Shown here in pieces: positions 9,322-36,957 of a stretch of DNA of 64,000 bases. Origin of the DNA: Dehalococcoidia bacterium (GTDB taxonomy: Bacteria > Chloroflexota > Dehalococcoidia > Lucifugimonadales > UBA3495); assembly GCA_965115825.1 (NCBI GenBank), contig OZ220464.1, forward strand, positions 1,668,437 to 1,732,436. Reading direction: 5' to 3'. The translations under genes were made by a program, and so were the position numbers. Each line of letters starts with the position of its first letter. The stretch's first letter is position 1. Under the pieces are notes generated by a model. The model saw only the letters and a program-made list of their open reading frames with translations, did no database searches and had not been told where the DNA came from.

Positions 9322-9329
9322 TGCAAGGG

Positions 9330-12012: not shown

Positions 12013-12041
12013 TTGACAAAGCAGGCGGTGGGGCGTATGAC
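12013..12041 (+). promoter_or_regulatory. sigma70-like promoter candidate
   Basis: TTGACA (12013..12018), a 17-nt spacer, then TATGAC (12036..12041). It lies about 45 nt upstream of an AAGGAGG RBS and the ATG at 12086. Confidence 0.35.
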
Positions 12042-12085
12042 GCTTGAGTACAACGCGGAACACCGCAAGCGCAAGGAGGAAACAG

Positions 12086-12249
12086 ATGACTACTCGGATT
12101 TATACAGCATCAAAAACCCGCTCAAATAACCGACCTGGCTGGAGCGTGACGTTTACGCACCCGCGCCGTAGCGACGGACGCGGCAAGCTAGGACTGAAAA
12201 TGCGGCGCGGATTGGGTACCACGGATGATTCTGAGGCTGAGCGCCTGGT
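12086..12249 (+). pseudogene. 5' fragment of a gene (possibly tyrosine-integrase N-terminal arm domain) truncated by the CRISPR trailer
   Basis: An AAGGAGG RBS precedes an ATG encoding MTTRIYTASKTRSNNRPGWSVTFTHPRRSDGRGKLGLKMRRGLGTTDDSEAERLV. This resembles integrase N-termini (RPxGxW..Y/F.xP....LGT.D..EAE.L). The reading frame then runs straight into half a CRISPR repeat at 12250. Confidence 0.35.
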
Positions 12250-15200
12250 TGTGCGGGGGAGCCCTCCGGCAAATCGGTACTGCGTCCCGCCGGTGGGGTC
12301 TATCCCCGCGTGTGCGGGGGAGCCGGTCAACGTAGCCGAACCCGGTGCCGGAAGTCAGGTCTATCCCCGCGTGTGCGGGGGAGCCCGGGTGCGCAGTTCA
12401 CGATGCGCTACCTGGATGGGTCTATCCCCGCGTGTGCGGGGGAGCCTGACCAGCGTGTCGCAGGCTACCGTCTCGGCCGGGTCTATCCCCGCGTGTGCGG
12501 GGGAGCCAGCAACGACCTCGGGCCGGCTATACGTTCGTAAGGTCTATCCCCGCGTGTGCGGGGGAGCCAACGCAACGAGGCCCGGCCCCGTGTTCTGTAT
12601 CGGTCTATCCCCGCGTGTGCGGGGGAGCCATGTCAACGAGTAGATCGTTGGCAGCGTTCCGAGGTCTATCCCCGCGTGTGCGGGGGAGCCGGCCGCCAGA
12701 CTCATCAAGCCGTACGACACCCCGGTCTATCCCCGCGTGTGCGGGGGAGCCGAAAGGCGGTCAAACGGAAGGCTACCACGAGCGGGTCTATCCCCGCGTG
12801 TGCGGGGGAGCCGTCGTGTTCAGCAGCGCCGCCAACGCCGTGTCGCCTCTATCCCCGCGTGTGCGGGGGAGCCGTACTACACCAACCGGTGGCTCAATGC
12901 GCGCACGGTCTATCCCCGCGTGTGCGGGGGAACCTACGGATACATGCAGAACCCCTATGAAGTGCGGGGTCTATCCCCGCGTGTGCGGGGGAACCAGCCT
13001 GACCTCAGTCACCGCCGGCGGGCCTATCGGTCTATCCCCGCGTGTGCGGGGGAACCATATCTTGCGGACGTTGACCGTATTATCCGCAGGGTCTATCCCC
13101 GCGTGTGCGGGGGAACCACCGACGGCTCCCCATCGTGCCGGTACAGCCCCGGTCTATCCCCGCGTGTGCGGGGGAACCACCGTCGGCCAGTCCGCATAGT
13201 AGGCGGTCAGGGGTCTATCCCCGCGTGTGCGGGGGAACCATGGCATTAGGGCCTCCTTTTCGGCGAGGTGATGGTCTATCCCCGCGTGTGCGGGGGAACC
13301 GCCCGGACTGTACCTATGCCCTGATTGCGGCGGGGTCTATCCCCGCGTGTGCGGGGGAACCGCCAGAACCGCCGCCGATGCCGGGGCGCATCCTGGTCTA
13401 TCCCCGCGTGTGCGGGGGAACCCCGGCCTGTCGCGGACGGTCGGACAGTCAGTCCGGTCTATCCCCGCGTGTGCGGGGGAACCCCGGAGGGATACAATGG
13501 CAGTCCACGTAACTAAGGTCTATCCCCGCGTGTGCGGGGGAACCGGTTGGCGGGGGTTTTGGGTAATGGTGTAAATGGGTCTATCCCCGCGTGTGCGGGG
13601 GAACCACCGGGCAGGGGCCGCGCCATACCTCTTTGCCGGGTCTATCCCCGCGTGTGCGGGGGAACCCGCGCCGGCACCCCCGCCGTCTCGGCAATGTCCG
13701 GTCTATCCCCGCGTGTGCGGGGGAACCTGGCCTTTTGAGACAGACTTGGCTCGTATTCTAGGTCTATCCCCGCGTGTGCGGGGGAACCCTGCGGCCTGGT
13801 CAGCAGCATGGCGACGAGAGCGGTCTATCCCCGCGTGTGCGGGGGAACCGCCCCCACCCGGGCAGTGTACTGCGGCGCCCTGGGTCTATCCCCGCGTGTG
13901 CGGGGGAACCGGGCAGGGGTACACAGTGCCAGGGGACGGGCGGCGGTCTATCCCCGCGTGTGCGGGGGAACCCCCTCACCTTCGCCCTCAAACGCGGCTC
14001 CCCCGGGTCTATCCCCGCGTGTGCGGGGGAACCGTCCGCTGCCACTGAGCCGAATTCAGGTTCTGAGGTCTATCCCCGCGTGTGCGGGGGAACCTATTCA
14101 GCGTATTCTTTCCCCTCCTGAAAGGCGGGTCTATCCCCGCGTGTGCGGGGGAACCCCCAGGCCCAACTTTCCGCCGCCGGCGTGGGGCGGTCTATCCCCG
14201 CGTGTGCGGGGGAACCTGGCGGTCTCAAAAAGAGAGGGTGTTAACCCGGGGTCTATCCCCGCGTGTGCGGGGGAACCACAGCAACCCCGCCTTCACGGGC
14301 AACCAAATCCGGTCTATCCCCGCGTGTGCGGGGGAACCCCGACGCCTGCGCGACCCGGAGCGGCCAAATGGGGTCTATCCCCGCGTGTGCGGGGGAACCC
14401 ATCGAAAACCGCCTGTACCACGAGACCTGGGGGGTCTATCCCCGCGTGTGCGGGGGAACCTAATTTGACGCTATCTACCATATGACTAGGCAAGGTCTAT
14501 CCCCGCGTGTGCGGGGGAACCGAGCAGGCGGCGCCGGGGCGGATAGCGCACGCCTGTCTATCCCCGCGTGTGCGGGGGAACCGATATTGACGGTATTGGC
14601 GGCAGTGCCGCGGACGGTCTATCCCCGCGTGTGCGGGGGAACCCCCAGGCAGGCCGCCACATCCATTTGCGCATTCGGTCTATCCCCGCGTGTGCGGGGG
14701 AACCCAAAAAGCCGGTCGCCTCGTCGTAGTCGTAGAAGGTCTATCCCCGCGTGTGCGGGGGAACCCTCATAGATGGCGGCGATTTTGGCTTTGATAGTGG
14801 TCTATCCCCGCGTGTGCGGGGGAACCGTGCAGCGGCTACTGGTACTGTACCCACTGCGGGGTCTATCCCCGCGTGTGCGGGGGAACCCGGGAGGTTGTCC
14901 AAGATGATCTGGATAGCGGGGGTCTATCCCCGCGTGTGCGGGGGAACCGATGTCAAGCTGGAAGTCCGATAGCAGCAGGCCGGTCTATCCCCGCGTGTGC
15001 GGGGGAACCGCCGAGGACGGCAACGGGAACTACCGCGCGGCAGGTCTATCCCCGCGTGTGCGGGGGAACCGGATGCGGCCCGGCATCGGCGGCGGTTCCG
15101 GGGGGTCTATCCCCGCGTGTGCGGGGGAACCCGATAGCGCAAGCCGATGCAAAACACGCCGCCAGGTCTATCCCCGCGTGTGCGGGGGAACCCCCACCGG

Positions 15201-18200
15201 CTCATAGCGGATGCCCAGGGCGGTCGGTCTATCCCCGCGTGTGCGGGGGAACCCCTGCCCAATGTCAAATCCGACCTATTTTTTGGGGTCTATCCCCGCG
15301 TGTGCGGGGGAACCCCGCCACTGGCTTGCGCGGTCAGTGACGGCTACGGTCTATCCCCGCGTGTGCGGGGGAACCCGCCCAGACCCGGCGCCTTTACCCT
15401 GTCCGACGGGTCTATCCCCGCGTGTGCGGGGGAACCTATGGACAGCAGCTCGGCGATGTCGCGGTACGAGGTCTATCCCCGCGTGTGCGGGGGAACCCAA
15501 AAACCGACGCCGTCGTGTAGCGGCTGACGGGGTCTATCCCCGCGTGTGCGGGGGAACCCATCAGCTCGTCCAGCACCTCGTCCAGAGGAACGGTCTATCC
15601 CCGCGTGTGCGGGGGAACCCCCGGCGCGAGCGGTTGCTCATTCCCCGCCGAGGGTCTATCCCCGCGTGTGCGGGGGAACCCCGCACTGCCCGCGGGCCCC
15701 GGCCAGTGGACGCGGTCTATCCCCGCGTGTGCGGGGGAACCAGATCTGGTGGAGCAGCCCGACTACCCTGGTTGGGTCTATCCCCGCGTGTGCGGGGGAA
15801 CCATTTTATGATAGTAGCATTGCGTTTTATGATAAGGTCTATCCCCGCGTGTGCGGGGGAACCCGCCGGGCGTTGGCGGCGTAGGTCTGCCCCAGGGGTC
15901 TATCCCCGCGTGTGCGGGGGAACCGTAGCAGTCTATCGGGACGATGCGGATGAGGCTGGTCTATCCCCGCGTGTGCGGGGGAACCGCTGCCGCCCGCGAC
16001 TACGGCTTTATCAGCACGGGTCTATCCCCGCGTGTGCGGGGGAACCTCCCGGCAATGGCCTCCGGGGATGGGCGGCTCCGGTCTATCCCCGCGTGTGCGG
16101 GGGAACCGCCCCCGGCGTCCTGAACCGCCGGGGGCTGATGGGTCTATCCCCGCGTGTGCGGGGGAACCGACATGACGGCTTCGCATACAGCATCATCTTG
16201 GGGTCTATCCCCGCGTGTGCGGGGGAACCTGGACGACGCCGGCCCCGAAAGCCCCTATCGCAGGTCTATCCCCGCGTGTGCGGGGGAACCGGGCCTTGGC
16301 GACTGCGGCTTGCCACTGGCCGGGGTCTATCCCCGCGTGTGCGGGGGAACCTGATGAGTTCCTCTTCAGCTTGCATCGGTCTCAGGTCTATCCCCGCGTG
16401 TGCGGGGGAACCGCGATATGGGCAACGACAGCAGCCCACGCCCGCGGTCTATCCCCGCGTGTGCGGGGGAACCCTCCGGCGGCATTTGATACAGCCCCCG
16501 GTCGACGGTCTATCCCCGCGTGTGCGGGGGAACCTCACCCGCTGGAGCTCTATCTGAAGGGTCTGACGGTCTATCCCCGCGTGTGCGGGGGAACCACCTG
16601 AAATGCGTGGACACCAACTCGTGGTACAGGTCTATCCCCGCGTGTGCGGGGGAACCACCCGGAGTACCCGCCCCCATACGCTGACAAGGGGTCTATCCCC
16701 GCGTGTGCGGGGGAACCTCCAGCTGGCCGGTTTTGAGGTCGAGCAGGCCAGGTCTATCCCCGCGTGTGCGGGGGAACCCGGTTCAAACTCGATATTCTGG
16801 TTGTTGCCCAGGGTCTATCCCCGCGTGTGCGGGGGAACCAGAATAAATCGAGCGCTTTCACCATAGCCGCCCGGTCTATCCCCGCGTGTGCGGGGGAACC
16901 ATAGTCCTCGACCACCCGACCGCCTTCGCCAGCGGTCTATCCCCGCGTGTGCGGGGGAACCCAGTCAGCATAGTAGGCGGTCAGGTAGGGGGCGGGTCTA
17001 TCCCCGCGTGTGCGGGGGAACCAGCCTACGAACGGGGTGAGGAAGCGGCCCGAAAGGTCTATCCCCGCGTGTGCGGGGGAACCACTATGCCGGCATTGGC
17101 GCCGGGTTCTACCGAGGGTCTATCCCCGCGTGTGCGGGGGAACCCTGGTGGTCGTGCTGGTGGGGCGGCGGGCTTCGGGTCTATCCCCGCGTGTGCGGGG
17201 GAACCTCACCGAGTGGACTAACTCGGCGATCCCGCCGGTCTATCCCCGCGTGTGCGGGGGAACCACCGACGGCGCCGGAGACCGTCGCTGGTGAAAGGTC
17301 TATCCCCGCGTGTGCGGGGGAACCCCTCGTGCCCCTGGGTTACATCGTAAAGCTTGGGGTCTATCCCCGCGTGTGCGGGGGAACCATAACGACGGGCTGC
17401 AAGTCATCTATTAGAACAGGTCTATCCCCGCGTGTGCGGGGGAACCCGGTGGAGCGGGCGGATGCGCTGGTGCAGGTGGGGTCTATCCCCGCGTGTGCGG
17501 GGGAACCCCGGAGAGGGGCGCCGCCTTGTTGCGGGTGGAGGGTCTATCCCCGCGTGTGCGGGGGAACCATGGTAGCGTCCACCCAGGACTTGGTGTAATA
17601 GGGTCTATCCCCGCGTGTGCGGGGGAACCGAACCACTCGATGTCGTAACTGTTGCTGCTGCGGGTCTATCCCCGCGTGTGCGGGGGAACCCCTCCGACAA
17701 GCCGGCGTATCCCCCAATGACGAGGTCTATCCCCGCGTGTGCGGGGGAACCGTTCGGCGGCGCCGGGCGATATGGCTTTGGAGAGGTCTATCCCCGCGTG
17801 TGCGGGGGAACCTTTGCACTACGGACCATGATATGAAGCCGGCGGGGTCTATCCCCGCGTGTGCGGGGGAACCTTCACCGATTCGCATAAGAGGGCCTCA
17901 CGGTAAGGTCTATCCCCGCGTGTGCGGGGGAACCCTTTACATATGCCCGCAGTGCGGAGGTAAGAAGGGTCTATCCCCGCGTGTGCGGGGGAACCCGCTT
18001 TTCCACCATCCCCAAGGGCGAACCGGACGGTCTATCCCCGCGTGTGCGGGGGAACCCCGACGGCCACGCCGTAGCCTGCGCCGCCGCGGGGTCTATCCCC
18101 GCGTGTGCGGGGGAACCGACCAGGCTTGCAAGGACGTCGCCCGACTCTGCGGTCTATCCCCGCGTGTGCGGGGGAACCACCATGGCGCCCCAGGTCTCGT

Positions 18201-21200
18201 GGTACAAGCGGGGTCTATCCCCGCGTGTGCGGGGGAACCAGGTCGCACCAGTGTTCAATCGCCGGCCTGGTGGGTCTATCCCCGCGTGTGCGGGGGAACC
18301 GCTCCCTCGCCTATGCCCCCGACCCCGAGGCGCGGTCTATCCCCGCGTGTGCGGGGGAACCGAGGGCAAGGACGATAACGCCCGCGTCATCCAGGTCTAT
18401 CCCCGCGTGTGCGGGGGAACCCTATGGAGGTCGTAAGAAATGGCGATTGACACCGGTCTATCCCCGCGTGTGCGGGGGAACCTCCGCCTTCGGCTTGGGC
18501 CGGGTGATGAACGTGGGTCTATCCCCGCGTGTGCGGGGGAACCGGGGACAATACCGTCATCACCACGCGGGGGGACGGTCTATCCCCGCGTGTGCGGGGG
18601 AACCAAGACCGGCAAATCATCCTGAACATAAGAGCCCGGTCTATCCCCGCGTGTGCGGGGGAACCGGTATCCGCTCACTAGCCAGCGGCACGACCCGAGG
18701 TCTATCCCCGCGTGTGCGGGGGAACCGCCGACAGCAGCAAGTCCCGCGCCGCCTCGGTCGGTCTATCCCCGCGTGTGCGGGGGAACCTCGGGCGGATTTG
18801 GCAGATTGATACACCAGCAAGGTCTATCCCCGCGTGTGCGGGGGAACCCTCTAGTCAGTCGCATTGGCATGAGACGCCTCCGGTCTATCCCCGCGTGTGC
18901 GGGGGAACCACCTTCATTGGCGATTTCGCTCGGTCAGTTCTCGGTCTATCCCCGCGTGTGCGGGGGAACCAACAGCAGGTCGGCGGCTTGGTGTTTCGGG
19001 CAGGGTCTATCCCCGCGTGTGCGGGGGAACCCCCGAAGGCAACCCCGTCGTCTACGCCCTGATGGGTCTATCCCCGCGTGTGCGGGGGAACCCCGGGCGA
19101 CATTGGTCGGGGGATACAGGAGACGGGTCTATCCCCGCGTGTGCGGGGGAACCCGCCTGGGCAACCTCCGCCGCCGTCAGCGTCAAGGTCTATCCCCGCG
19201 TGTGCGGGGGAACCAGTAGCCGGTCTATCCGGTCTCGGGCGTAGGCGGGTCTATCCCCGCGTGTGCGGGGGAACCACGATGTAGGGGTCGCGGGGCAACG
19301 GCTGATGGGGTCTATCCCCGCGTGTGCGGGGGAACCGGTAAATCACGCAATGCATCGTAATCGGGAAACGGTCTATCCCCGCGTGTGCGGGGGAACCTCG
19401 CAACTTTTGCCGTCCTAGCAGCAGGATATGGGTCTATCCCCGCGTGTGCGGGGGAACCAATGCTTATGATACCGGCGCGATACGTTGCGGAGGTCTATCC
19501 CCGCGTGTGCGGGGGAACCAAAAAGAGGGGGGCAAAAATGCCTACCATTGAGGGTCTATCCCCGCGTGTGCGGGGGAACCCGGCCCCGCAAGCATGACAG
19601 CCCGTCCGTGCGGGGTCTATCCCCGCGTGTGCGGGGGAACCGTAATGTATACATGTGCGATACCGATAGCATAGGGTCTATCCCCGCGTGTGCGGGGGAA
19701 CCCACGCCGGCCGAGGGCACATTCCGGAGGTGTCGGGTCTATCCCCGCGTGTGCGGGGGAACCGCGGTGGGGAGTCGCATGCTGCCGCAGCAGCGCGGTC
19801 TATCCCCGCGTGTGCGGGGGAACCACGGTGGGAAGATGGCGCTGGCAAGAGGGATCCGGTCTATCCCCGCGTGTGCGGGGGAACCGACCTGCTGAGCTGC
19901 AAGAGCTGCGGCAGCCGCGGTCTATCCCCGCGTGTGCGGGGGAACCTAGCTATAGAAGGACGGGGGCGCCAGGAGCGTCGGTCTATCCCCGCGTGTGCGG
20001 GGGAACCCTGCTTACCGACGCGGCGGATAAGGCGGCGGCCGGTCTATCCCCGCGTGTGCGGGGGAACCTACCGCTGGCCGCTCCATTTTGGGCCCCCGGA
20101 AGGTCTATCCCCGCGTGTGCGGGGGAACCGCGCCGTAAGCAAGCCGGCCCGCGCCGTTGAGCGGTCTATCCCCGCGTGTGCGGGGGAACCGACATCGCGG
20201 AGACTGCGGGGGTGCCGGCGCGGGGTCTATCCCCGCGTGTGCGGGGGAACCGGTTCCGGCTTTCGCAAGGGCTTGAGGCTATGCGGTCTATCCCCGCGTG
20301 TGCGGGGGAACCTTTTGATGAGGTCAATGGGGTTCATGATGCTCCGGTCTATCCCCGCGTGTGCGGGGGAACCCTGATGTGGCAACCCCGGCACAGCGTC
20401 CGGAGGGGTCTATCCCCGCGTGTGCGGGGGAACCCCAGTGCTCGTCCCCATCGGGACGGGTGCCCAGGGTCTATCCCCGCGTGTGCGGGGGAACCAACTG
20501 GGTCCCTATCGGCGCGCCGGTATTGAGAGGTCTATCCCCGCGTGTGCGGGGGAACCCCCCGTTGGGCATGCAGACAGAAGCGTTGCGCTGGTCTATCCCC
20601 GCGTGTGCGGGGGAACCGTCAGCGGTCTTCAGGAGGCAGAGGTTACAGGAGGTCTATCCCCGCGTGTGCGGGGGAACCCTGACGCCGGTCATCATCGCCC
20701 TGACGCCGGCGGGTCTATCCCCGCGTGTGCGGGGGAACCCTTGAGACTAGCCTCCGGGCCGCCGAGCGGGAGGGTCTATCCCCGCGTGTGCGGGGGAACC
20801 TCGCCGCCCGCCGGCAGCACCTTCGCGTCCAAAGGTCTATCCCCGCGTGTGCGGGGGAACCCGCTCCTCTATCCAGTCGAGGCCCTCCCGCACCGGTCTA
20901 TCCCCGCGTGTGCGGGGGAACCCGAAACCAGTTGTGTACAGCAAGGACTGCTACAGGTCTATCCCCGCGTGTGCGGGGGAACCAACTGGGTCCCTATCGG
21001 CGCGCCGGTATTGAGAGGTCTATCCCCGCGTGTGCGGGGGAACCCACCATACCTCGCAGTTGAAGTCCGACGGGATGGGTCTATCCCCGCGTGTGCGGGG
21101 GAACCATGCCGTCCCCGCGCCCCGCCGCCCCGTGCCGGGGTCTATCCCCGCGTGTGCGGGGGAACCAGCTTCACATGCACCACGCCGGCCGAGGGCACAG

Positions 21201-24200
21201 GTCTATCCCCGCGTGTGCGGGGGAACCCTAGGACGGCAAAAGTTGCGACTGGCAATGATGGGTCTATCCCCGCGTGTGCGGGGGAACCGCGCCAGTGTTG
21301 ACGTCGCTGCCGGCCTCCGCAGGTCTATCCCCGCGTGTGCGGGGGAACCGTGGCCATGGCATTCCAGTTCGCCACTTGCGTGGGTCTATCCCCGCGTGTG
21401 CGGGGGAACCGGCCCGGCCCGTTGGCCGATTACGCCGGCAAAGGGTCTATCCCCGCGTGTGCGGGGGAACCTCACGCCCCATCCCCGGGGGTTCATCCGG
21501 GAGGGGTCTATCCCCGCGTGTGCGGGGGAACCAACTATCACGATTGGCAACATCGCCGCCGCCGAGGTCTATCCCCGCGTGTGCGGGGGAACCTTGAAGT
21601 CCGACGGGATGTTGCCGCCGGCGAAAGGTCTATCCCCGCGTGTGCGGGGGAACCTAAGTCGCTCCACCGCCCACAAGGCCGCCAACTGGTCTATCCCCGC
21701 GTGTGCGGGGGAACCGCCGCGCCGCGTCGGTATGCCATAGCATCGCGGGGTCTATCCCCGCGTGTGCGGGGGAACCCCGGCCCGGCCCGTCGGTTACCAG
21801 GGCCGGAGCGGTCTATCCCCGCGTGTGCGGGGGAACCCTTCGGGCCGCCGCATTCGGGGCATAGGTACAGGGTCTATCCCCGCGTGTGCGGGGGAACCCG
21901 ATGTAACGCAGGGGCACGAGGTTGCGATCCGGGTCTATCCCCGCGTGTGCGGGGGAACCCCGGATACCGCTACCGGACTACCATGGGGTCAGGGTCTATC
22001 CCCGCGTGTGCGGGGGAACCCGTCTGATTTACCGCGACCCCCGCACTTATTACGGTCTATCCCCGCGTGTGCGGGGGAACCCCCACGCCTTGGGCCTGCA
22101 TCAGGATGTCCAGCGGTCTATCCCCGCGTGTGCGGGGGAACCGGTCGTGGTGGTACATCCGTCAGTACGACTCGGGGTCTATCCCCGCGTGTGCGGGGGA
22201 ACCCTTCGGGCCGCCGCAATCGGGGCATAGGTAACGGGTCTATCCCCGCGTGTGCGGGGGAACCCTTGGACGTATAGGCCTTCGGGCCGCCGCATTCGGT
22301 CTATCCCCGCGTGTGCGGGGGAACCTTGACTTGCTGGCGATCAGTCCAGCAAGCCGGAGGTCTATCCCCGCGTGTGCGGGGGAACCAGCGGCGGCGGCGG
22401 CCAACGCGGGCCGGGCCGGGGTCTATCCCCGCGTGTGCGGGGGAACCACGCAGGCGTAGCATACCGCCACATTGCGGGGGGGTCTATCCCCGCGTGTGCG
22501 GGGGAACCGTCATCGCGAATGTCCACCACCTTCGTGATGAAGGTCTATCCCCGCGTGTGCGGGGGAACCCAGTAGTCGCAGACGAGGGCCAGACGAGGGG
22601 TGGGTCTATCCCCGCGTGTGCGGGGGAACCTGGCCGGTGAGCTGGTGAACCCCCCGCGTCAACGGTCTATCCCCGCGTGTGCGGGGGAACCTGATTTTCT
22701 CGCCGCCAATTTTGCCAATGGAAGGGTCTATCCCCGCGTGTGCGGGGGAACCTGGCCGGTGAGCTGGTGAACCCCCCGCGTCAACGGTCTATCCCCGCGT
22801 GTGCGGGGGAACCGAGGTCAATCGGGTTCATGATGTTCTCCTATTGGGTCTATCCCCGCGTGTGCGGGGGAACCATTGAGCACTGGTGCGACCTGTTGGG
22901 CCTCGGGGGTCTATCCCCGCGTGTGCGGGGGAACCCGTGAAGGCGCACCTGGAACCGACGCACCAGACGGTCTATCCCCGCGTGTGCGGGGGAACCTGCC
23001 CCGGGTAGCCGATGGCGGCGTGAAAATAGGGTCTATCCCCGCGTGTGCGGGGGAACCACCTATGGTGTCAACAGCCCCGCCCGGGTAGCGGGTCTATCCC
23101 CGCGTGTGCGGGGGAACCGAACGCAAGCGGCGGCTGCGGCGGGGGATGGACGGTCTATCCCCGCGTGTGCGGGGGAACCACGGGGATGCTCAAAAAGGTA
23201 TGTCCGTCAATGGGTCTATCCCCGCGTGTGCGGGGGAACCTGCCACCCGTCCCGGTCAATGCGACGCATTAAGGGTCTATCCCCGCGTGTGCGGGGGAAC
23301 CTGGATGGACGCGATAGCCGGCCGCCCGCCCGGCGTGTCTATCCCCGCGTGTGCGGGGGAACCTGCCACTCCGTGCCGGGGGCGTCGGGGGTAATGGGTC
23401 TATCCCCGCGTGTGCGGGGGAACCCGGCCCGCGACGTGGACGCCGACTGGATTTGCAGGTCTATCCCCGCGTGTGCGGGGGAACCAGCCTGAGGGTCATA
23501 ACTGCGGACTGCTCGAACGGTCTATCCCCGCGTGTGCGGGGGAACCATCGTCGCCGCCGGACGATGCGCCGGCGGGAAGGGTCTATCCCCGCGTGTGCGG
23601 GGGAACCCCCCAGGTCTCGTGGTACAGGCGGGATTCGACGGGTCTATCCCCGCGTGTGCGGGGGAACCTCCGTCCATCATCAGTCCACCCATCCGCCGCG
23701 CGGTCTATCCCCGCGTGTGCGGGGGAACCCCGTCGCCTGCGCGACCCTGACCGGCCCAGTGGGGTCTATCCCCGCGTGTGCGGGGGAACCACCGCCCACA
23801 CCTCGAAAGTGTGATAGCCCGGAGGTCTATCCCCGCGTGTGCGGGGGAACCGATGTCCAGCTTGGTCTCGATTACGGCCAGCCGGGTCTATCCCCGCGTG
23901 TGCGGGGGAACCCGACATCGCCGCTGAAAATGACCTCAAAGGCAGGGTCTATCCCCGCGTGTGCGGGGGAACCGGGACGGGCGGCTTGTCAGCGGTCAAT
24001 GCGTGGGGTCTATCCCCGCGTGTGCGGGGGAACCGCGTGCCGAAAGCGGCCAGTGAGTAGCGCATAGGGTCTATCCCCGCGTGTGCGGGGGAACCACTGC
24101 CATAGTGCGCCGTCCAGTCGGGCGGCAGGGTCTATCCCCGCGTGTGCGGGGGAACCTAGGCAGGGCCGCCACGCGGCCCGCTCCATTTGGGTCTATCCCC

Positions 24201-27200
24201 GCGTGTGCGGGGGAACCTCGGGGGGACACGCCGGGGCGCGACATGCTGCAGGTCTATCCCCGCGTGTGCGGGGGAACCGCAGCCGCACGGGACAAGCAGT
24301 CCCAACCTGGGGGTCTATCCCCGCGTGTGCGGGGGAACCGCCGCTTGCGTGGCGCCGTGCATGTACAACATCGGTCTATCCCCGCGTGTGCGGGGGAACC
24401 GGCATTCAGCGGGCTCAACCGAACGGTCGGCAGGGTCTATCCCCGCGTGTGCGGGGGAACCCCGATAGCATAGCAATGTGGCCAGCGCGTCCACGGTCTA
24501 TCCCCGCGTGTGCGGGGGAACCAGCATGACTTTAGGCTTGTCGCCGGGCAGGTATGGTCTATCCCCGCGTGTGCGGGGGAACCCCGTTGGCGGTAGCGAT
24601 GTAGGCGGTCAGCGCGGGTCTATCCCCGCGTGTGCGGGGGAACCCCGTCGCTGGTCCCTGGACGCAGCTCGATGTACGGTCTATCCCCGCGTGTGCGGGG
24701 GAACCTGGCCGACGTCAAGGAGGAGCTCGAAAAAGAGAGGTCTATCCCCGCGTGTGCGGGGGAACCATGTGTCGCAGCTCCGTGCTCCCCGGAGTCCGGG
24801 GTCTATCCCCGCGTGTGCGGGGGAACCCCGATCTTCTCGAGGATCGTCTGCGGATTTTGAGGTCTATCCCCGCGTGTGCGGGGGAACCCCTCCCGGATAA
24901 ACCCCCGGGGATGGGGGGTGAGGTCTATCCCCGCGTGTGCGGGGGAACCCCGTTTGAGGGCGAAAGAGAGGGAACGCAGGCCGGTCTATCCCCGCGTGTG
25001 CGGGGGAACCAACCCAACGTCGGGAGGATGGAACTGCCGACCGGGTCTATCCCCGCGTGTGCGGGGGAACCCCAAACCGGCGCCCTGGACACCGCAGGCC
25101 CGGAGGTCTATCCCCGCGTGTGCGGGGGAACCCCCAGCGGCATTCCGAACGCCGATCGCAACGACGGTCTATCCCCGCGTGTGCGGGGGAACCGTTCCGA
25201 ACGCCGACCGCAACGACTTGCTGGCGGGTCTATCCCCGCGTGTGCGGGGGAACCACCCCAACGTCGGCAGAATAGAACTCCCGACCGGGTCTATCCCCGC
25301 GTGTGCGGGGGAACCCGTTCGGGACGCCGCCGGGCAGCATTATTTTGAGGTCTATCCCCGCGTGTGCGGGGGAACCCCTTTGCCCGTATGGGCGTTCTCG
25401 TAGACCAGGGGTCTATCCCCGCGTGTGCGGGGGAACCATTGAACACTGGTGCGACCTGCTGGGCTACGGCGGTCTATCCCCGCGTGTGCGGGGGAACCTC
25501 CTTTGAGCAGTTGGGTAAGGGCGTTGATGGCGGTCTATCCCCGCGTGTGCGGGGGAACCCCCGCAGAACGAACCCCAAAGCGGCGCCGAAAGGGTCTATC
25601 CCCGCGTGTGCGGGGGAACCACCGCCATAGACCACCAGCAAGCCCCCGGGCAAGGTCTATCCCCGCGTGTGCGGGGGAACCGTGTCGCTATCAGAACCAG
25701 CGTCTCAACCGTCGGGTCTATCCCCGCGTGTGCGGGGGAACCCCCAGTGCCAATCCTGTTCGGCAAGGGGGCGGAGGTCTATCCCCGCGTGTGCGGGGGA
25801 ACCGTCCCCGGAGCTGCCCAAGCTGCCTTGCCGGAGGGTCTATCCCCGCGTGTGCGGGGGAACCGGTCATAGCCCGTGATAAGCCGGGGATAGATGCGGT
25901 CTATCCCCGCGTGTGCGGGGGAACCGGAGCGTCGGTTGGCGGGGCGGGCGTACCAGCCGGTCTATCCCCGCGTGTGCGGGGGAACCCCAAACTGTTCGAC
26001 GTTACGCAGGGGCACGAGGGGTCTATCCCCGCGTGTGCGGGGGAACCGGGGCAAAAAGTGACAACCGTCTCGCAGTACGAGGTCTATCCCCGCGTGTGCG
26101 GGGGAACCCCCCATTGACCTCATCAAAAAAATCGTCCTGGGGGTCTATCCCCGCGTGTGCGGGGGAACCCCACCCTGGCTGAAAAGTTCGAGCAGTCCGC
26201 AGGGTCTATCCCCGCGTGTGCGGGGGAACCACCCACCGATGGAAACCACCAGCGCCAGCAAGAGGTCTATCCCCGCGTGTGCGGGGGAACCTCGGCCTTC
26301 AATTCCTTGAGGTTGCCCGTCGTCGGTCTATCCCCGCGTGTGCGGGGGAACCGTCGTAACTCCCACCGGCTCCGGCGGGTGTCGGGGTCTATCCCCGCGT
26401 GTGCGGGGGAACCGCGGCGGGATGCTATCGCCATTCATCCCTCCTCGGTCTATCCCCGCGTGTGCGGGGGAACCGCCCCGAACAGCTCATGATGAAGTGG
26501 CTGGAAAGGTCTATCCCCGCGTGTGCGGGGGAACCCGCTTGGAGTCGAGATGGATTTTGCCGACGTGAGGTCTATCCCCGCGTGTGCGGGGGAACCCATC
26601 AGGTCGTCTATCACCTCGTCCAGCGGCACGGTCTATCCCCGCGTGTGCGGGGGAACCCCTCCGGGCCGGAGGGGTGGCATCAAAAGGAGGGGTCTATCCC
26701 CGCGTGTGCGGGGGAACCCGCCAGCAGGTCGTTGCGGTCGGCGTTCGGGACGGTCTATCCCCGCGTGTGCGGGGGAACCGGGTTCACCCATACCCAAGGC
26801 CGGGTCAATGCGGGTCTATCCCCGCGTGTGCGGGGGAACCCCGCTCCTCCGTCTGGCCGCTGAATATCGAGACGGTCTATCCCCGCGTGTGCGGGGGAAC
26901 CAGCGAGGCGTGGAACGAGCTGTACGAACAGGCGGGTCTATCCCCGCGTGTGCGGGGGAACCGACAGGACAGGCTATGATATAGTCAACGGCATGGGTCT
27001 ATCCCCGCGTGTGCGGGGGAACCAAGCCGTATGACGCCCCGGAGTTCGCCGATGGGGGTCTATCCCCGCGTGTGCGGGGGAACCTGTACCAGGAGTTGGT
27101 GTCCACGCAATGAAGGTGGTCTATCCCCGCGTGTGCGGGGGAACCCCGGGCGGTCGGTCAAAATCGGGTGGGCCGACGGGTCTATCCCCGCGTGTGCGGG

Positions 27201-30200
27201 GGAACCTTCTCCGTCTTCGGTTCGCCGCAATCAATGCAGGGTCTATCCCCGCGTGTGCGGGGGAACCCCGCCACACTGGCATTGACTGCCATGTACCCGG
27301 GGTCTATCCCCGCGTGTGCGGGGGAACCAAAATGGCTATCGACACATTTGCCCCCCAGTACGGTCTATCCCCGCGTGTGCGGGGGAACCGGGTTGACCCA
27401 TACCCAAGGCCTGGTCAATGCGGGTCTATCCCCGCGTGTGCGGGGGAACCCGGCCGTGTCTCGTACTGCACCCCCAGCACGCCGGTCTATCCCCGCGTGT
27501 GCGGGGGAACCGCAAGCGCCGGCGCCAACATCACCGGCGCTCACGGTCTATCCCCGCGTGTGCGGGGGAACCCCAGGGCGGGACATGTTGCACTTCGCCA
27601 TCGGGGGTCTATCCCCGCGTGTGCGGGGGAACCCCTCCGGGCCGGAGGGGTGGCATCAAAAGGAGGGGTCTATCCCCGCGTGTGCGGGGGAACCTCAAAC
27701 CGGCGGCGGACACCAAGGTTGGTATAGGGTCTATCCCCGCGTGTGCGGGGGAACCTACGACCAGGAGTACACGCTCACCATCGACCAGGGTCTATCCCCG
27801 CGTGTGCGGGGGAACCCTCTAAGCAGGGCCACGCGGGCCGCTCCATTTGGGTCTATCCCCGCGTGTGCGGGGGAACCAGGTGCCTTTCGGTGGCGGTTTG
27901 GGAGAGTATCGGTCTATCCCCGCGTGTGCGGGGGAACCATGGTGAAGACGTGGAAGCCGGGTTCCGGCTCGGGTCTATCCCCGCGTGTGCGGGGGAACCC
28001 GTAATCGGCGGCAAGCCCCCCGGCGCGAGCGGGGTCTATCCCCGCGTGTGCGGGGGAACCGCTGCTGGGCGAGGCGGATACCGAGCAGGGGACGGTCTAT
28101 CCCCGCGTGTGCGGGGGAACCAGGCCGCGTCAATGCGTTCGGGTCTTCCGCCAGGGTCTATCCCCGCGTGTGCGGGGGAACCGGTCGGGGTGGAGACGGC
28201 GCCGTCGCCTGAGGAGGTCTATCCCCGCGTGTGCGGGGGAACCACATACGCCGCAACCAGTCCAGCGCGCCAGGAGGGTCTATCCCCGCGTGTGCGGGGG
28301 AACCATGAGCCGGTCGGCGATATAGTCGATATCGGCCGGTCTATCCCCGCGTGTGCGGGGGAACCAGGCCGGCGTATCCCCGCACCACCCCGGCGGCGGG
28401 TCTATCCCCGCGTGTGCGGGGGAACCTACTCCAAGTGGGAGTACGTGATGCGGATGAAGGGTCTATCCCCGCGTGTGCGGGGGAACCATGCTGGACATCA
28501 ACACCAACATTCGCAATGAGGGTCTATCCCCGCGTGTGCGGGGGAACCCTGCTGGTCTGGGTGGCGGTTGGCGACGGGCATGGTCTATCCCCGCGTGTGC
28601 GGGGGAACCAACCGCCGGCGCAATAACGCCCCATCCTCGCGGGGTCTATCCCCGCGTGTGCGGGGGAACCTCCGGGCGGCCAAAATGGAGCGCCCAGCGG
28701 TAGGGTCTATCCCCGCGTGTGCGGGGGAACCATGTCGGACTCCACTATATAAATAGGAAGGATCGGTCTATCCCCGCGTGTGCGGGGGAACCTATCCTCC
28801 TGGTGATGTATGCGGCGCCGGGGACGGTCTATCCCCGCGTGTGCGGGGGAACCATGGCGCAGTACATGATGCAGGCCGACCGGGAGGGTCTATCCCCGCG
28901 TGTGCGGGGGAACCGCGGCCCGGCACCTGTTCGAGATCACTTTGGAGGGTCTATCCCCGCGTGTGCGGGGGAACCCCGCCCAAAATGCCGGCGGGCGCCG
29001 GGGTGTCGGGTCTATCCCCGCGTGTGCGGGGGAACCTAGATAGCGGCGATTTTGGCTTTGATAGTTTCGGGTCTATCCCCGCGTGTGCGGGGGAACCGCG
29101 CGGCATTCTCGGCGGGTCAGTGGAGGCAGGGGTCTATCCCCGCGTGTGCGGGGGAACCCCGCCGCAAGCCGAAGCGGCCGGCGTGGTTCGCGGTCTATCC
29201 CCGCGTGTGCGGGGGAACCCGTAATGAACGACTGGGTCAGCCGACGTACCGCGGTCTATCCCCGCGTGTGCGGGGGAACCCAGCTCCGCTATCCGCTGCT
29301 GCGAGGCCAGACGGGTCTATCCCCGCGTGTGCGGGGGAACCCATCAGCTCGTCCAGCACCTCGTCCAGCGGAACGGTCTATCCCCGCGTGTGCGGGGGAA
29401 CCCCCGGCGGCACTCCCTCACCATCCGACGCCGGAGGTCTATCCCCGCGTGTGCGGGGGAACCCCCGATATGGCCTTACTATGCGACGCAGTGGACGGTC
29501 TATCCCCGCGTGTGCGGGGGAACCGTAGGCAGTAACGGCCTGGTCAACAACTTTAACGGTCTATCCCCGCGTGTGCGGGGGAACCCCTGGTCGACGAACG
29601 GCTCGTCCGCCCACCCGAGGTCTATCCCCGCGTGTGCGGGGGAACCGACAAGCCTAAAGTCATGCTGGGACCCAAGCCCGGTCTATCCCCGCGTGTGCGG
29701 GGGAACCGAGTCCACATAGATACCGCTGCCCAACTGCGGCGGTCTATCCCCGCGTGTGCGGGGGAACCTAGCCATGCCGGTAGGCGCCGGTCGGGGTGCA
29801 GGGTCTATCCCCGCGTGTGCGGGGGAACCCCTCCCGGATGAACCCCCGGGGATGGGGCGTGAGGTCTATCCCCGCGTGTGCGGGGGAACCCCTGCCTTGC
29901 TGCTGCTGGCCGTCAACGGCAGCGGTCTATCCCCGCGTGTGCGGGGGAACCGTCGATAGCCATTTTTCAATCACCTCTAAGCAGGGTCTATCCCCGCGTG
30001 TGCGGGGGAACCGCCACCTATGCCCGGGGCACAAATATGACCGACGGTCTATCCCCGCGTGTGCGGGGGAACCGCCCCGAACAGCTCATGATGAAGTGGC
30101 TGGAAAGGTCTATCCCCGCGTGTGCGGGGGAACCATAGTGCGGGTGCTGTACAAGCTGGCCGAATAGGGTCTATCCCCGCGTGTGCGGGGGAACCGTGGG

Positions 30201-32879
30201 CGGATGAGCTGCGAGACATAGCGTTGCTGGTCTATCCCCGCGTGTGCGGGGGAACCTTCGGCAGGCCAAAGAAAAGGTCGGTGGACGGGGGTCTATCCCC
30301 GCGTGTGCGGGGGAACCAGTTCCGCCGGCCGGTTGTCGGGGCCGGAGGGGGGTCTATCCCCGCGTGTGCGGGGGAACCAGCAGCTAGGCCCCCCCCGCCG
30401 ACAGCGGCTTGGGTCTATCCCCGCGTGTGCGGGGGAACCCGGATGTGGCTGAGGTGGTGGGCAGAGGAGTCCGGTCTATCCCCGCGTGTGCGGGGGAACC
30501 CTGGCCTACGAACTGGCGGAAGACCCGAACGCAGGTCTATCCCCGCGTGTGCGGGGGAACCTACGACCAGGAGTACACCCTCACCATCGATCAGGGTCTA
30601 TCCCCGCGTGTGCGGGGGAACCTCCTCATCTACGTAAATGCAGATGTCGATGCGAGGTCTATCCCCGCGTGTGCGGGGGAACCCCACTATCAGGAGGCAG
30701 ACTGATGGACGGGATGGGTCTATCCCCGCGTGTGCGGGGGAACCCGTCGTCGCGACATTCGTCGCACGCAACGCAGGGGTCTATCCCCGCGTGTGCGGGG
30801 GAACCACCCGAACACGGATACTAACCGCTCGTTGGGGAGGTCTATCCCCGCGTGTGCGGGGGAACCTCGGCGCCGGGAAAAACAAGTCATCGTCAAAAAG
30901 GTCTATCCCCGCGTGTGCGGGGGAACCGGCTAGGACTGACCGCTGGCGGTGGCGCATCTAGGTCTATCCCCGCGTGTGCGGGGGAACCTCTATAAGATAC
31001 AGAACACGGGCCCGGGTGTCGGGTCTATCCCCGCGTGTGCGGGGGAACCGAGGTGCAGTTCGTGGCCGGCACGACGCGGGACGGTCTATCCCCGCGTGTG
31101 CGGGGGAACCTGCAAGGCGTTGACTCGCTGGTGTCCGTAACCCGGTCTATCCCCGCGTGTGCGGGGGAACCGTGTAGGTGCGCTCCCATTGCGTGCTACT
31201 CAAGGGTCTATCCCCGCGTGTGCGGGGGAACCCGACTTCGCCGCAAGCCAGGCCAGGGTGGCGGCGGTCTATCCCCGCGTGTGCGGGGGAACCTCGGCGA
31301 TATTTATCCCGCCGCCCAGTCGGATGGGTCTATCCCCGCGTGTGCGGGGGAACCGAGTTCTCGTCGGTTAGCGACGTGGACAGAACCGGTCTATCCCCGC
31401 GTGTGCGGGGGAACCATCCGCGTTTTGAGGGATGAGGCGGAGTCGAGGGGTCTATCCCCGCGTGTGCGGGGGAACCGTGGTGCTTCACGCCGATGACAGT
31501 TCCGTCGGGGGTCTATCCCCGCGTGTGCGGGGGAACCGTCTACCACAATGGCGGCGTGTTTTGCATCGGCGGTCTATCCCCGCGTGTGCGGGGGAACCAA
31601 CCCATCGGCGAACTCCGGGCGGTCATAGGGCGGTCTATCCCCGCGTGTGCGGGGGAACCGGGCTTGGCGATGGTGAAGACGTGGAAGCCGGGGGTCTATC
31701 CCCGCGTGTGCGGGGGAACCAGGATAGCATCAGCAGGGCGGCGTTGCGGGCGGGGTCTATCCCCGCGTGTGCGGGGGAACCTCCTATGACGGGTTCATCT
31801 CGATGATTTTAATCGGTCTATCCCCGCGTGTGCGGGGGAACCCTTCGCTGGCGGCAACATCCCGTCGGACTTCAAGGTCTATCCCCGCGTGTGCGGGGGA
31901 ACCTTCCATCGGGTTCCTGCCGACGGCGCCCATCGGGGTCTATCCCCGCGTGTGCGGGGGAACCTGTACCACGAGACCTGGGGCGCGATGGTGGTGCGGT
32001 CTATCCCCGCGTGTGCGGGGGAACCCCGACGGCGCCGGCGCCGCATCCCTGGCCAAGCGGTCTATCCCCGCGTGTGCGGGGGAACCGGGAAAAACAAGTC
32101 ATCGTCAAAAATTTTGCCCGGTCTATCCCCGCGTGTGCGGGGGAACCGCAATACGTCCACCCCGTGGTACTCCACTGGCGGGTCTATCCCCGCGTGTGCG
32201 GGGGAACCCTATCTTTGATGCGGGTTACGGCAAATGTGTATGGTCTATCCCCGCGTGTGCGGGGGAACCCCTACCGTCCGCCGCCCGATGATGGGAACGT
32301 CGGGTCTATCCCCGCGTGTGCGGGGGAACCCCAACGAGCTGCGCCTCGAGGAGGTCTACCCCGGGTCTATCCCCGCGTGTGCGGGGGAACCACGGGGATA
32401 GTCCTGCCGGCCGTGCTGAAGTCGGGTCTATCCCCGCGTGTGCGGGGGAACCTTGACATCGAGATTGACTATTTCCTGCTGGTGAGGTCTATCCCCGCGT
32501 GTGCGGGGGAACCCAAGCGAACGACGCCCGGTCCCGTGTTCTGAATGGTCTATCCCCGCGTGTGCGGGGGAACCCCCAGCGCTGCTGCGGTTGGCCGTCA
32601 ACAGCGGGGTCTATCCCCGCGTGTGCGGGGGAACCGCCCGCCGGGGAGACACCCCGGGGCGGGACATGGGTCTATCCCCGCGTGTGCGGGGGAACCGACG
32701 GGGATAGTCCTGCCGGCCGTGCTGAAGTCGGTCTATCCCCGCGTGTGCGGGGGAACCCCCCTGGGGTTCACCAGGCGGATGGATGTCCCGGGTCTATCCC
32801 CGCGTGTGCGGGGGAACCGGCATCCCTGGACTCCACGCCGACGGCCCGGGAGGTCTATCCCCGCGTGTGCGGGGGAACC
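12250..32879 (-). CRISPR. type I-E CRISPR array, about 338 repeats and 337 spacers (estimated)
   Basis: The 28-nt repeat GGTCTATCCCCGCGTGTGCGGGGGAACC (plus strand) recurs every 61 bp (occasionally +/-1) from 12297 to 32879, and a half repeat GTGCGGGGGAGCC sits at 12250..12262. The reverse complement GGTTCCCCCGCACACGCGGGGATAGACC matches the E. coli I-E repeat architecture (CCCCGC-N4-GCGGGG hairpin, ATAnACC handle). The array is therefore read on the minus strand with the leader next to cas2. Confidence 0.99.
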
Positions 32880-32909
32880 TCTTGGCGAATTGATACTTTG
32901 TATTTTATA
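32880..32909 (-). promoter_or_regulatory. CRISPR leader (very short AT-rich intergenic segment)
   Basis: Only 30 nt separate the cas2 stop (32910..32912) from the first repeat. The minus-sense sequence TATAAAATACAAAGTATCAATTCGCCAAGA contains a TATAAA box and an ATCAA (IHF-like half site). A 7-bp inverted repeat, GGCGAAT (32884..32890) and ATTCGCC (32912..32918), brackets it. Confidence 0.45.
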
Positions 32910-33218
32910 TCATTCGCCTCGGGGACGGGACTGACCGTATCTTACCAAGTACACGCCGTCAGCGTCTATAACTTCCTTGGGCGGTTCTCCCAAACTTCTG
33001 ATGCTCTGCTGTCCCGGCGCCGACGGATCTCTCCAAGTCATCACGATTGAGCCGTTGCCCAACTCGCCGTGCCAACGCGCCAGCACATCCCAGATACGTT
33101 CTCTGATGCCGCTGGTCAGATCCGGAGACGTGTACACCCCCGGGGCTATCTCCAGCATCACCGATGCCAGAAACCCCCGATACCGCCCTTCTACGTTCAC
33201 TGTCACGACCACCGTCAT
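32910..33218 (-). CDS. cas2: CRISPR-associated endoribonuclease Cas2 (I-E)
   Basis: From the ATG at 33218 it reads MTVVVTVNVEGRYRGFLASVMLEIAPGVYTSPDLTSGIRERIWDVL..., collinear with E. coli Cas2 ([31 protein letters not shown]...). It sits last in the cas operon. Confidence 0.9.
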   Translation of the reverse strand: MTVVVTVNVEGRYRGFLASVMLEIAPGVYTSPDLTSGIRERIWDVLARWHGELGNGSIVMTWRDPSAPGQQSIRSLGEPPKEVIDADGVYLVRYGQSRPRGE

Positions 33219-33223
33219 CAGCG

Positions 33224-34189
33224 CTATCCCTCTGAGGAGCTCTCGTCCAGCCAATCTTCCAGCAGACTCACATCATCAACGCTTCTCGGCGCCGGCTTGC
33301 TCTCCAGTGGCGGCACGTCCTGAAACAGGGTTTTGATGCGGTCGATCATCTTGGAAATAACCCGCTCCGTCCGTAGCAGATCGCCCGTGGTTCGCCTGGT
33401 GTGCCTTTCTATATCCAGTCGGTTATTTCCGGCGACCTCGGCCGCCGATTTGAACGCCGCCGGCAGCAGGACCGTATCCCGGAAGAGGTCTGCAATGTCC
33501 AGGGCAAACGCTTCGCCGCTGTGCTCGTGGATGAACCCGAGCTGCGGGATTGCCCCCAGCGATGTCACTGCAATTACCGCCGCTGCCGTAACCGCAACTG
33601 AAGCGTGGTTGATGGCTTGATTCGGAATGTCTGCCGCCATGGGGTTGGCCCGGTCATAGCGCCGCCCCCGCCACTCTATGCCATACTGCCGCGACAAGTT
33701 CTGATAGGTGCGTTTCATCCGCGCGCCTTCGATGCCGCGCAATGCGGTGATGTCCATATGGGGCAGCACTTCGCCCAGACGCAGGGCATACATTTTCCGG
33801 GCAATCGTGATTCGGCTACCCTCCGGGTCGCCCCAGGCCCGCATCTGCCGCCGCGCGATGTCTGAGGTGTCCGGCATCAAGGGCGGCGCCGTATAGCACC
33901 GCACGCCATCCTCTCCGACGGCCACTAATCCGGTGCCGTGTCGCGCCATCAGCCGCAGGGCATCGTGGCTTACCGTAGAACCGGGGCCCAACAGGATCAT
34001 GGAAAGGCTCTGAAAGGGAATACCGTATTCGCCGGCCGCCAGCGGGCTGGCGGCGTCCGGCCCGGCCTGCCGTTCAAAACGGAGCGTACCATCCCGTACC
34101 GTCAGAGCGCCGCGGGACAACCAAAGCAGCCCGTGACGGTCGGCGTGGGGTATCCGCGCCGTTTCCAGTCCTAACCTTCCTCTCAGCAT
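33224..34189 (-). CDS. cas1: CRISPR-associated integrase Cas1 (I-E)
   Basis: 321-aa ORF with a GAGGAG RBS. Cas1e-like features include the N-terminal beta domain (LLWLSRGALTVRDGTLRF) and the helical catalytic domain (NHASVAVTAAAV...GFIHEHSG). It lies directly upstream of cas2. Confidence 0.93.
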   Translation of the reverse strand: MLRGRLGLETARIPHADRHGLLWLSRGALTVRDGTLRFERQAGPDAASPLAAGEYGIPFQSLSMILLGPGSTVSHDALRLMARHGTGLVAVGEDGVRCYTAPPLMPDTSDIARRQMRAWGDPEGSRITIARKMYALRLGEVLPHMDITALRGIEGARMKRTYQNLSRQYGIEWRGRRYDRANPMAADIPNQAINHASVAVTAAAVIAVTSLGAIPQLGFIHEHSGEAFALDIADLFRDTVLLPAAFKSAAEVAGNNRLDIERHTRRTTGDLLRTERVISKMIDRIKTLFQDVPPLESKPAPRSVDDVSLLEDWLDESSSEG

Positions 34190-34295
34190 CTCAACTCCTC
34201 GCGCGATATTTGCCGCGGCAGGGGTTATTCAGTTTTTAATCTGCGCTGACCCAGGTAGCCGCCGACCGCCTAGCGCTCTAATGCTTGGCGGAGCA

Positions 34296-36941: not shown

Positions 36942-36957
36942 TAGGCTGCTCCCTGTC

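Follow-up and report, generated by a model that had tools for sequence, protein, structure and literature searches.

CRISPR-1 of Escherichia coli K-12, a type I-E CRISPR array, holds about a dozen spacers. The E. coli leader has three modules: a Cas1-Cas2 site (positions -1 to -4), a site for integration host factor (IHF; -9 to -35) and an upstream element (-50 to -55) (PMC10011333). The longest array recorded in CRISPRCasdb contains 587 spacers (PMC7145573), and an array of 121 spacers has still been termed exceptionally long (bioRxiv 10.64898/2026.07.09.737519). In this work we analyzed a window of 64,000 nucleotides (nt) from a Dehalococcoidia bacterium (assembly GCA_965115825.1, contig OZ220464.1, positions 1,668,437 to 1,732,436), in which a type I-E array of 337 spacers follows a cas operon. 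Taken as a whole, the locus is very probably best explained as a real, recently active type I-E array that belongs to the adjoining complete operon. It is a large but ordinary array of its type: its length is a trait of the lineage, that is, of the sponge-type SAR202/Dehalococcoidia and neighboring Chloroflexota, where hundreds of spacers are usual, and the clade stands out more than this locus does. Positions are given in the numbering of the whole window unless the genome is stated.

An earlier reading of the letters alone (hereafter the original prediction) had described a type I-E array of about 338 repeats and 20.6 kb with near-perfect 61-bp periodicity, and had proposed that the repeats be counted by software. 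These points were borne out. A fuzzy search with the 28-nt core found 338 full repeats, from 12297-12324 to 32852-32879, on one strand only, and Tandem Repeats Finder agreed on 338 copies; with a 13-nt partial repeat the array extends over 20,630 nt (12250-32879), or 0.63% of a single-contig genome of 3.27 Mb with 62% G+C. The reversed pattern, used as a control, gave no match in any genome searched for the repeat. As many as 326 of the 338 repeats were identical; ten, at the far end, carried one variant base, and two differed at the terminal base. Repeat-to-repeat spacing was 61 nt in 332 of the 337 intervals (62 nt in two, 60 nt in two and 59 nt in one), a regularity which implies that nothing has inserted inside the array. 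Of the spacers (64% G+C), 332 were 33 nt long and 333 were unique. In the sense of the CRISPR RNA (crRNA) the repeat reads GGTTCCCCCGCACACGCGGGGATAGACC and forms a hairpin of the I-E type (-15.4 kcal/mol), whose stem has 6 bp and whose loop is ACAC, the plus-strand repeat being the reverse complement of the typical I-E repeat. The array and its far end comprise:

12250 to 32879, minus strand: type I-E CRISPR array, 338 full repeats and one partial repeat, 337 spacers, leader end at 32879 and trailer end at 12250.
12297 to 12873, minus strand: trailer block of ten variant repeats (nine plus one), with GGCTCC replacing GGTTCC, all at the far end (fuzzy repeat search).
12250 to 12262, minus strand: truncated terminal repeat of 13 nt, GTGCGGGGGAGCC, which ends the array and is fused to an unrelated truncated open reading frame (ORF).

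The operon preceding the array, cas3-cse1-cse2-cas7-cas5-cas6e-cas1-cas2, is complete; it adjoins the array on the right and is encoded by the minus strand, from 41947 down to 32910. All eight Cas proteins matched I-E-specific models of Pfam and NCBIfam, all of them above the NCBIfam cut-offs except Cse1:

39245 to 41947, minus strand: cas3, HD nuclease and helicase (I-E profile match).
37584 to 39224, minus strand: cse1 (cas8e), TIGR02547, E = 7e-17 over 450 residues, 61.5 bits.
36958 to 37587, minus strand: cse2 (cas11e), TIGR02548 with 62.5 bits, above the cut-off, and Pfam CRISPR_Cse2.
35769 to 37058, minus strand: cas7e (cse4), I-E profile match.
35011 to 35763, minus strand: cas5e, I-E profile match, which holds the protospacer of spacer S329 at 35225-35260.
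34296 to 35204, minus strand: cas6e (cse3), I-E profile match, the true start probably being downstream of the first start codon of the ORF.
33224 to 34189, minus strand: cas1e, TIGR03638 with 282 bits.
32910 to 33254, minus strand: cas2e, 114 amino acids, Pfam Cas_Cas2CT1978 and NCBIfam Cas2e, whose last seven codons, QSRPRGE, are an extension.

Given this arrangement of the operon, the array is read leftwards, from 32879 to 12250. The restriction of variant and truncated repeats to the end far from cas2 fits this polarity, and the trailer block at 12297-12873 is the oldest part of the array. The position and strand of the operon also ruled out a suspicion that the original prediction had put the leader at the wrong end.

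The comparison of array length in related genomes, which had been proposed together with the claim that the array is exceptionally large, showed that long arrays recur. In congeners the same repeat was present in 525, 397, 239, 213, 184, 141, 126 and 121 copies; the 525 repeats of G030 (the record of L023, OY843611.1) form one contiguous array, with 515 of 524 spacings at 61 nt and a cas2 gap of 54 nt. A broader set consisted of 50 related genomes with Cas1 79-91% identical, mostly complete long-read chromosomes. Their I-E repeat counts had a median of about 125 (quartiles 63 and 180), and five of them exceeded 338 (377, 402, 455, 474 and 514), which places the array at about the 90th percentile of its own clade. 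The epithet is thus deserved with respect to model organisms, but not within the clade. The relatives are named as metagenome-assembled genomes of Dehalococcoidia, SAR202, Chloroflexota or Caldilineaceae. The sponge Aplysina aerophoba is the source of two of them, the SAR202 bins MPMM and MPNC (PMC5649159), and several others presumably come from sponge studies too, to judge by the names of the bins. We infer from such relatives that the source genome belongs to a sponge symbiont. Sponge studies reported at most 169 (PMC5099237) or 158 (PMC11410982) spacers per array; long-read genomes therefore show far longer memories than short-read work could. As a separate observation, made by eye, the trailer end of the 525-repeat array of G030 adjoins what looks like the 3' half of a tRNA (…GGTGGGCTCGATTCCCATCATTCGCTCCA; L091, G030:C1:170566-170700), which hints at an integration hot spot beside the array.

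The original prediction placed the start of the array 30 nt after the cas2 stop codon, and this is exact: the first repeat ends at 32879 and the TGA occupies 32910-32912. The leader of about 30 nt that it deduced, in contrast, did not stand. The gap between the cas2 stop and the first repeat, compared over 75 related junctions, ranged from 15 to 122 nt, with a mode of 50-51 nt (18 loci), and a gap of 30 nt was seen in seven junctions, those of this genome and six related loci. In L013, L022, L023 and L033, cas2 ends with TAG or TAA right after the conserved ...GTGTACTTGGTAAAATACGGC (alignment A1). Here CAG at 32931-32933 takes the place of that stop, and the cas2 ORF runs on through QSRPRGE to a TGA that sits within a conserved leader motif, reading CCCTTGGCGAATGA in the relatives and CCCGAGGCGAATGA in this genome. 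Both the 30-nt gap and the overlap between leader and cas2 arise because the cas2 stop was lost and the ORF reads 21 nt (seven codons) into the leader. The 30-nt figure is therefore an annotation effect of this loss, whereas the proposal that leader functions overlap cas2 proved right, since 21 nt of the 51-nt leader are read as cas2. Judged by homology, the true leader is a compact conserved element of about 51 nt, with the following parts:

32880 to 32930, minus strand: leader-equivalent DNA, 51 nt, homologous to the 50-54-nt gap between cas2 and array in the relatives (alignment A1).
32880 to 32884, minus strand: junction box C-A-A-G-A, consensus C-W-A-G-R, a candidate Cas1-Cas2 anchoring site (conservation over 72 leaders).
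32890 to 32895, minus strand: TATCAA, an A/T patch from -16 to -11 that most related leaders retain.
32884 to 32918, minus strand: imperfect inverted repeat, GGCGAATGATA ... TATC-A-ATTCGCC, covering most of the leader, with its left arm inside the cas2 extension (DNA fold, z = -4.0).

Conservation was scored over 72 distinct leaders anchored at the leader-repeat junction. An A was found at -3 in 71 of the 72 leaders, a G at -2 in 70 and a G or A at -1 in all of them, preceded by A/T at -4 and C at -5. The leaders also have an A/T-rich patch near -14/-15, and upstream of it there was little general conservation. The closest relatives have in common an imperfect inverted repeat, CCCTTGGCGAAT ... 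ATTNGCCAAGGG, that spans their whole leader; its arms pair in 77.7% of the alignment cells, against 25-55% when slid. When leaders were folded as DNA, that of L019 gave z = -3.2, next to the -4.0 of this genome, and four other leaders were not significant. The conserved inverted repeat could be a symmetric protein site, a cruciform or a bend. A search of the leader and the array end against Rfam returned nothing meaningful.

The original prediction also considered an integration host factor site in the leader. The HU/IHF family (PF00216) had no match in this genome or in any of 24 congeners (24/24); of 16 other genera in the order, 9 had a match, as did 9 of 14 named control genomes. As no HU/IHF gene was found in the genus, an E. 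coli-type IHF site is not expected here, and we infer that leader recognition in the genus is independent of IHF/HU or relies on an unrelated protein. Such IHF/HU-free recognition would probably make use of the C-W-A-G-R junction box, the TATCAA patch at -16 to -11 and the leader-spanning inverted repeat. Within the 50 related I-E genomes the family was present in 16 and absent from 34; array size did not differ with its presence (Mann-Whitney p = 0.32), and by eye the leader gap followed no pattern with it. The five largest arrays all occur in genomes without HU, for which we estimate a chance of about 13% by luck, given 34 such genomes in 50. The apparent genus-wide loss of a near-universal nucleoid protein (25 genomes) is worth a separate look.

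The spacers themselves carry a record of how they were acquired. Sixty-four of them fell into 28 overlapping clusters, with 21 overlaps on the same strand and 19 on opposite strands. In 13 of the 20 informative overlaps, where one spacer gives the flank of another, the 33-nt unit has AA immediately on its 5' side. The unit begins with C in 48% of the spacers, with G in 29%, with T in 19% and with A in 4%, C/G/T thus accounting for 96%. Judged only from these internal overlaps, the protospacer adjacent motif (PAM) would be AA plus one base, with a degenerate third base that is carried into the array, as in the E. coli-type I-E mechanism. Members of a cluster often differ at every third base, mostly at third-codon positions (e.g. 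S58, S284, S103), a pattern that suggests diverged homologous coding genes of recurrent invaders. Furthermore, four spacers are present twice in identical form, S3 and S8, both within the eight newest spacers, form a duplicate slipped by 1 nt, and S50 and S187 represent one 33-bp sequence in its two orientations. Duplicates, slipped or flipped spacers and overlaps are typical signs that acquisition was repeated and primed and that the leader end has been active recently. We propose that Cas1-Cas2 added the 33-nt units at the cas2 end of the array (32879), from sites with 5'-AA as their flank and with the third PAM base (C > G > T) becoming the first base of each unit, and that the array was filled by repeated and primed sampling of a few diverging invaders.

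The targets were searched for outside the array. By megablast the whole array had no match in phages, and in plasmids it matched only another I-E array, at the level of the repeat. Neither IMG/VR (exact or degenerate scans) nor JGI metagenomes nor 54 genomes of the genus yielded a protospacer, and no spacer was shared with about 4,000 spacers of relatives. We also noticed that runs of at least five T are in excess on the sense (minus) strand of the spacers (12263-32851), with 13 runs against 2.5 +/- 1.4 in shuffled spacers and only two runs of A. Nine of the 13 read TTTTTG, and the excess may reflect a strand or motif bias of the sampled targets.

Four spacers, S246, S247, S335 and S329, match the host chromosome:

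17813 to 17906, minus strand: adjacent spacers S247 and S246, each 33/33 to the host chromosome, the protospacer flank not being AA.
12447 to 12479, minus strand: spacer S335, 33/33 to a chromosomal gene of the metallo-beta-lactamase fold, with AA one base out of register.
12813 to 12845, minus strand: spacer S329, from cas5e of the locus itself, with 35/36 identity between 12813-12848 and 35225-35260.

None of the three perfect self-matches (S246, S247 and S335) is at a canonical AA-flanked site. The identity of S329 extends 2 nt into the neighboring repeat, which there reads CCTCTAT instead of GGTCTAT, and its AA-flanked 33-nt block lies 2 nt out of register. The non-AA flanks or the shifted register plausibly explain why these spacers are tolerated, even if they are expressed. 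The targets of the perfect matches are the start of an ORF at genome positions 22274-23188, a small ORF at 2277780-2278187 and the metallo-beta-lactamase-fold ORF at 2142900-2144000. The genome also carries a second CRISPR array, of about 114 repeats of 37 nt (GTAGCACCCACCTTTTCGGGTGGGTGAGGATTGAAAC) with a period of about 73, and an orphan I-E mini-array of five repeats about 3 kb from it (the two at C1:3153829-3162213 and C1:3165281-3165490). Spacer S67 of the I-E array (28793-28825) matches a spacer of the second array at 28 of 29 bases, which implies that the two systems sampled the same target.

With respect to transcription, a sense-strand scan of 31500-35500, from cas6e through the leader, detected neither a -35/-10 consensus promoter nor a terminator-like site. 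The promoter-like sites relevant to the array were:

42574 to 42602, minus strand: a strong sigma-70-like promoter (TTGCAA-16-TATAAT, TG upstream) that precedes cas3 by about 630 nt, a candidate operon promoter (10/12; mean of 0.4 sites in shuffles).
32902 to 32912, minus strand: TGATATAAAAT, which overlaps the cas2 stop codon and, as read from the sequence, resembles an extended -10 (TGnTATAAA); the promoter scan, for which a -35 is required, did not call it.
15808 to 15835, minus strand: TTATCA-16-TATCAT (9/12), weak, the only sense-strand promoter-like site inside the array (one site against a mean of 3.4 in shuffles).

Across the array there was one terminator-like site, on the plus strand, and the sense strand had none, whereas shuffles gave 9.8 over the two strands; the spacers contained extended -10 motifs at the shuffle level (5 vs 4.5). 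The repeats are not terminators, because their hairpin is followed by AUAGACC and not by a run of U. Since neither a consensus promoter nor a terminator was found between cas2 and the array, and a strong promoter-like site is present upstream of cas3, co-transcription is our best guess; the original prediction had named it as an option, and it is a live one. We see about an even chance that much of the precursor RNA is produced by read-through from the cas operon, in a unit of up to 30 kb. The precursor would then start mostly at the promoter upstream of cas3, possibly aided by the weak extended -10 of the leader, and Cas6e would cut it into crRNAs of 61 nt whose abundance would fall towards the trailer end. 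A steep gradient of expression along the array, as measured in Myxococcus xanthus, is a real possibility here. The interval between the promoter-like site and the start of cas3 (41948-42573, minus strand) contains no minus-strand ORF of at least 80 amino acids; this gap could be a long 5' untranslated region or an unannotated element.

Several observations weigh against this account of the locus. The Cse1 score of 61.5 bits is below the curated NCBIfam cut-off of 70, and the protein has no Pfam match. In the leader, covariation of the inverted repeat is modest, with at least one double change in 7 of 12 pairs, and RNAalifold found no consensus structure in 23 leaders; we therefore claim no RNA structure, only an inverted repeat in the DNA. 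The extended -10-like element TGATATAAAAT is absent from the leaders of the relatives. The search for external protospacers was negative, so that both the PAM and the foreign origin of the spacers are deduced from the internal overlaps only. Finally, Rho is encoded in the genome, and boxA (GNTCTTTAANA) had no match within one mismatch near 32880-33300, its three matches in the window being at chance level, with the proviso that the boxA of the lineage itself may be diverged. An untranslated transcript of 20-30 kb would have to escape Rho.

The source of the precursor could also be different. It is possible, if not the likelier course, that a promoter within the compact leader, either TGATATAAAAT or the TTGGCG...TATCAA of the relatives, serves the array, which would then be transcribed independently of the cas operon, like CRISPR-1 of E. 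coli. In support of this idea, the TGnTATAAA element is 23-33 nt upstream of the first repeat, the leaders of the clade are A/T-rich near -11 to -18, and E. coli CRISPR-1 has a weak sigma-70 promoter whose start is about 50 nt upstream of the first repeat (PMC10011333). However, no -35/-10 pair emerged from the consensus scan of 31500-35500, the extended -10 element is missing in the closest relatives, and their -35-like TTGGCG, located 19 nt from TATCAA, is mutated to GAGGCG here.

Whatever the promoter, the fate of the distal spacers can be read in two ways. Most of the array may be silent baggage, a tentative explanation to which we give the same weight as to a leader promoter: only the leader-proximal tens of spacers would yield useful crRNA, and the rest would persist because repeat-mediated deletion is slow in this lineage, and not for being used. 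This would agree with the presence of Rho and the failure to find boxA, with the tolerance of four self-matching spacers in the older two-thirds of the array, and with models that put the optimal array size well below the one found here, effector complexes being diluted (PMC5749868). The tolerance is explained by the flanks and register described above, however, and the sense strand is free of terminator-like sites. Moreover, the 326 identical repeats, none decayed over 20 kb, fit selection or rapid build-up, and long arrays recur in dozens of independent genomes.

A more far-reaching idea, which we consider unlikely, is that the I-E system of sponge-type SAR202 and neighboring Chloroflexota is a variant adapted to hyper-long arrays, in which a palindromic leader of about 50 nt would work without IHF/HU, a unit of about 30 kb would be transcribed from the cas3 promoter, and a processivity or anti-Rho mechanism would keep the trailer spacers in use; if true, hundreds of spacers would really be in use, contrary to the dilution models. 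That the length is an assembly artefact, be it an expanded, collapsed or strain-variant chimeric array, is highly improbable: the genome seems to be a metagenome-assembled single contig and periodic repeats are difficult to assemble, but the internal evidence argues against it, with 333 of 337 spacers unique and no collinear duplicated or multi-unit blocks, longest internal repeats of 89-90 nt that equal one duplicated spacer plus its two flanking repeats, and a single polarity that runs from one leader to one decayed trailer, and equal or longer arrays occur in many independently assembled relatives.

Other features were observed around the array. Beyond its trailer end, a promoter-like TTGACA-17-TATGAC on the plus strand (12013-12041) is followed by an AAGGAGG ribosome-binding site (region 12013-12249), before a 55-codon ORF fragment starting at 12086. 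The partial terminal repeat truncates this fragment, which is directed antisense into the array; an "integrase-like" label considered for it was dropped as unsupported, as it matched no Pfam family. A dispersed G/T-rich repeat (core TTGTCAGAATCAGGATTTACGGGATTTTGAGGATTTTCAGGAT), which is not CRISPR, occupies 9329-10105 and 10220-10343 and forms more than 100 clusters genome-wide, with tandem units of 90-265 nt.

The single locus matters little, being an ordinary I-E system with a big array. The value lies at the level of the clade, where hyper-long arrays are the norm, the leader is compact (about 50 nt) and one genus is without HU/IHF, with dozens of complete genomes holding 100-525 repeats. 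The clade thus represents a natural test bed for how long an array stays expressed and useful, for the way in which Cas1-Cas2 finds the leader-repeat junction without IHF, and for why models predicting tens of spacers fail in high-exposure habitats, e.g. sponge tissue.

Among the systems already described, the long arrays of Sulfolobales with Cbp1/Cren7 (PMC10883916) share with this locus a multi-kilobase size and the problems of processive transcription and cryptic promoters; they are archaeal, with A/T-rich spacers and a dedicated repeat-binding protein, whereas the spacers here have 64% G+C and few promoter-like sites, and no such protein is known for this array. The 121-spacer array of M. 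xanthus (bioRxiv 10.64898/2026.07.09.737519) is also a long class 1 array for which the question of position effects was asked, but it is of type I-C, has a leader boxA and was tested experimentally; the array described here has nearly three times its length, and the search for boxA near its leader gave no match. Haliangium ochraceum DSM 14365, from a different phylum, likewise carries a single hyper-long chromosomal array in a bacterium, and as its 587 spacers (PMC7145573) exceed ours, the present array is no record.

The locus also resembles that of E. coli K-12, in which the same eight genes occur in the same order and CRISPR-1 has a 28/29-nt hairpin repeat with a 61-nt period. Both systems show a 5' PAM of the AA type, the last base of which is carried into the array, polarized leader-proximal insertion, and slipped, flipped and primed spacers; the third PAM base differs in being degenerate here (C/G/T). 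The leaders diverge more. That of E. coli is about 500 bp long, with an IHF site and an upstream element (PMC10011333); here it is about 51 nt, lies partly in the cas2 ORF and belongs to a genome with no HU/IHF gene, so that it is not an IHF-dependent leader of the E. coli type, with at least 60 bp of non-coding DNA, an upstream element and a sigma-70 promoter. Its three conserved blocks nevertheless follow the same order, in compressed form. The related SAR202/Dehalococcoidia arrays (e.g. OY843611.1) differ from this one in that its spacer content is wholly private and that many of them keep the earlier cas2 stop, and they agree with it in the identical or near-identical repeat, in Cas1 (79-92% identical), in the same compact C-W-A-G-R leader and in their size of 100-525 repeats.

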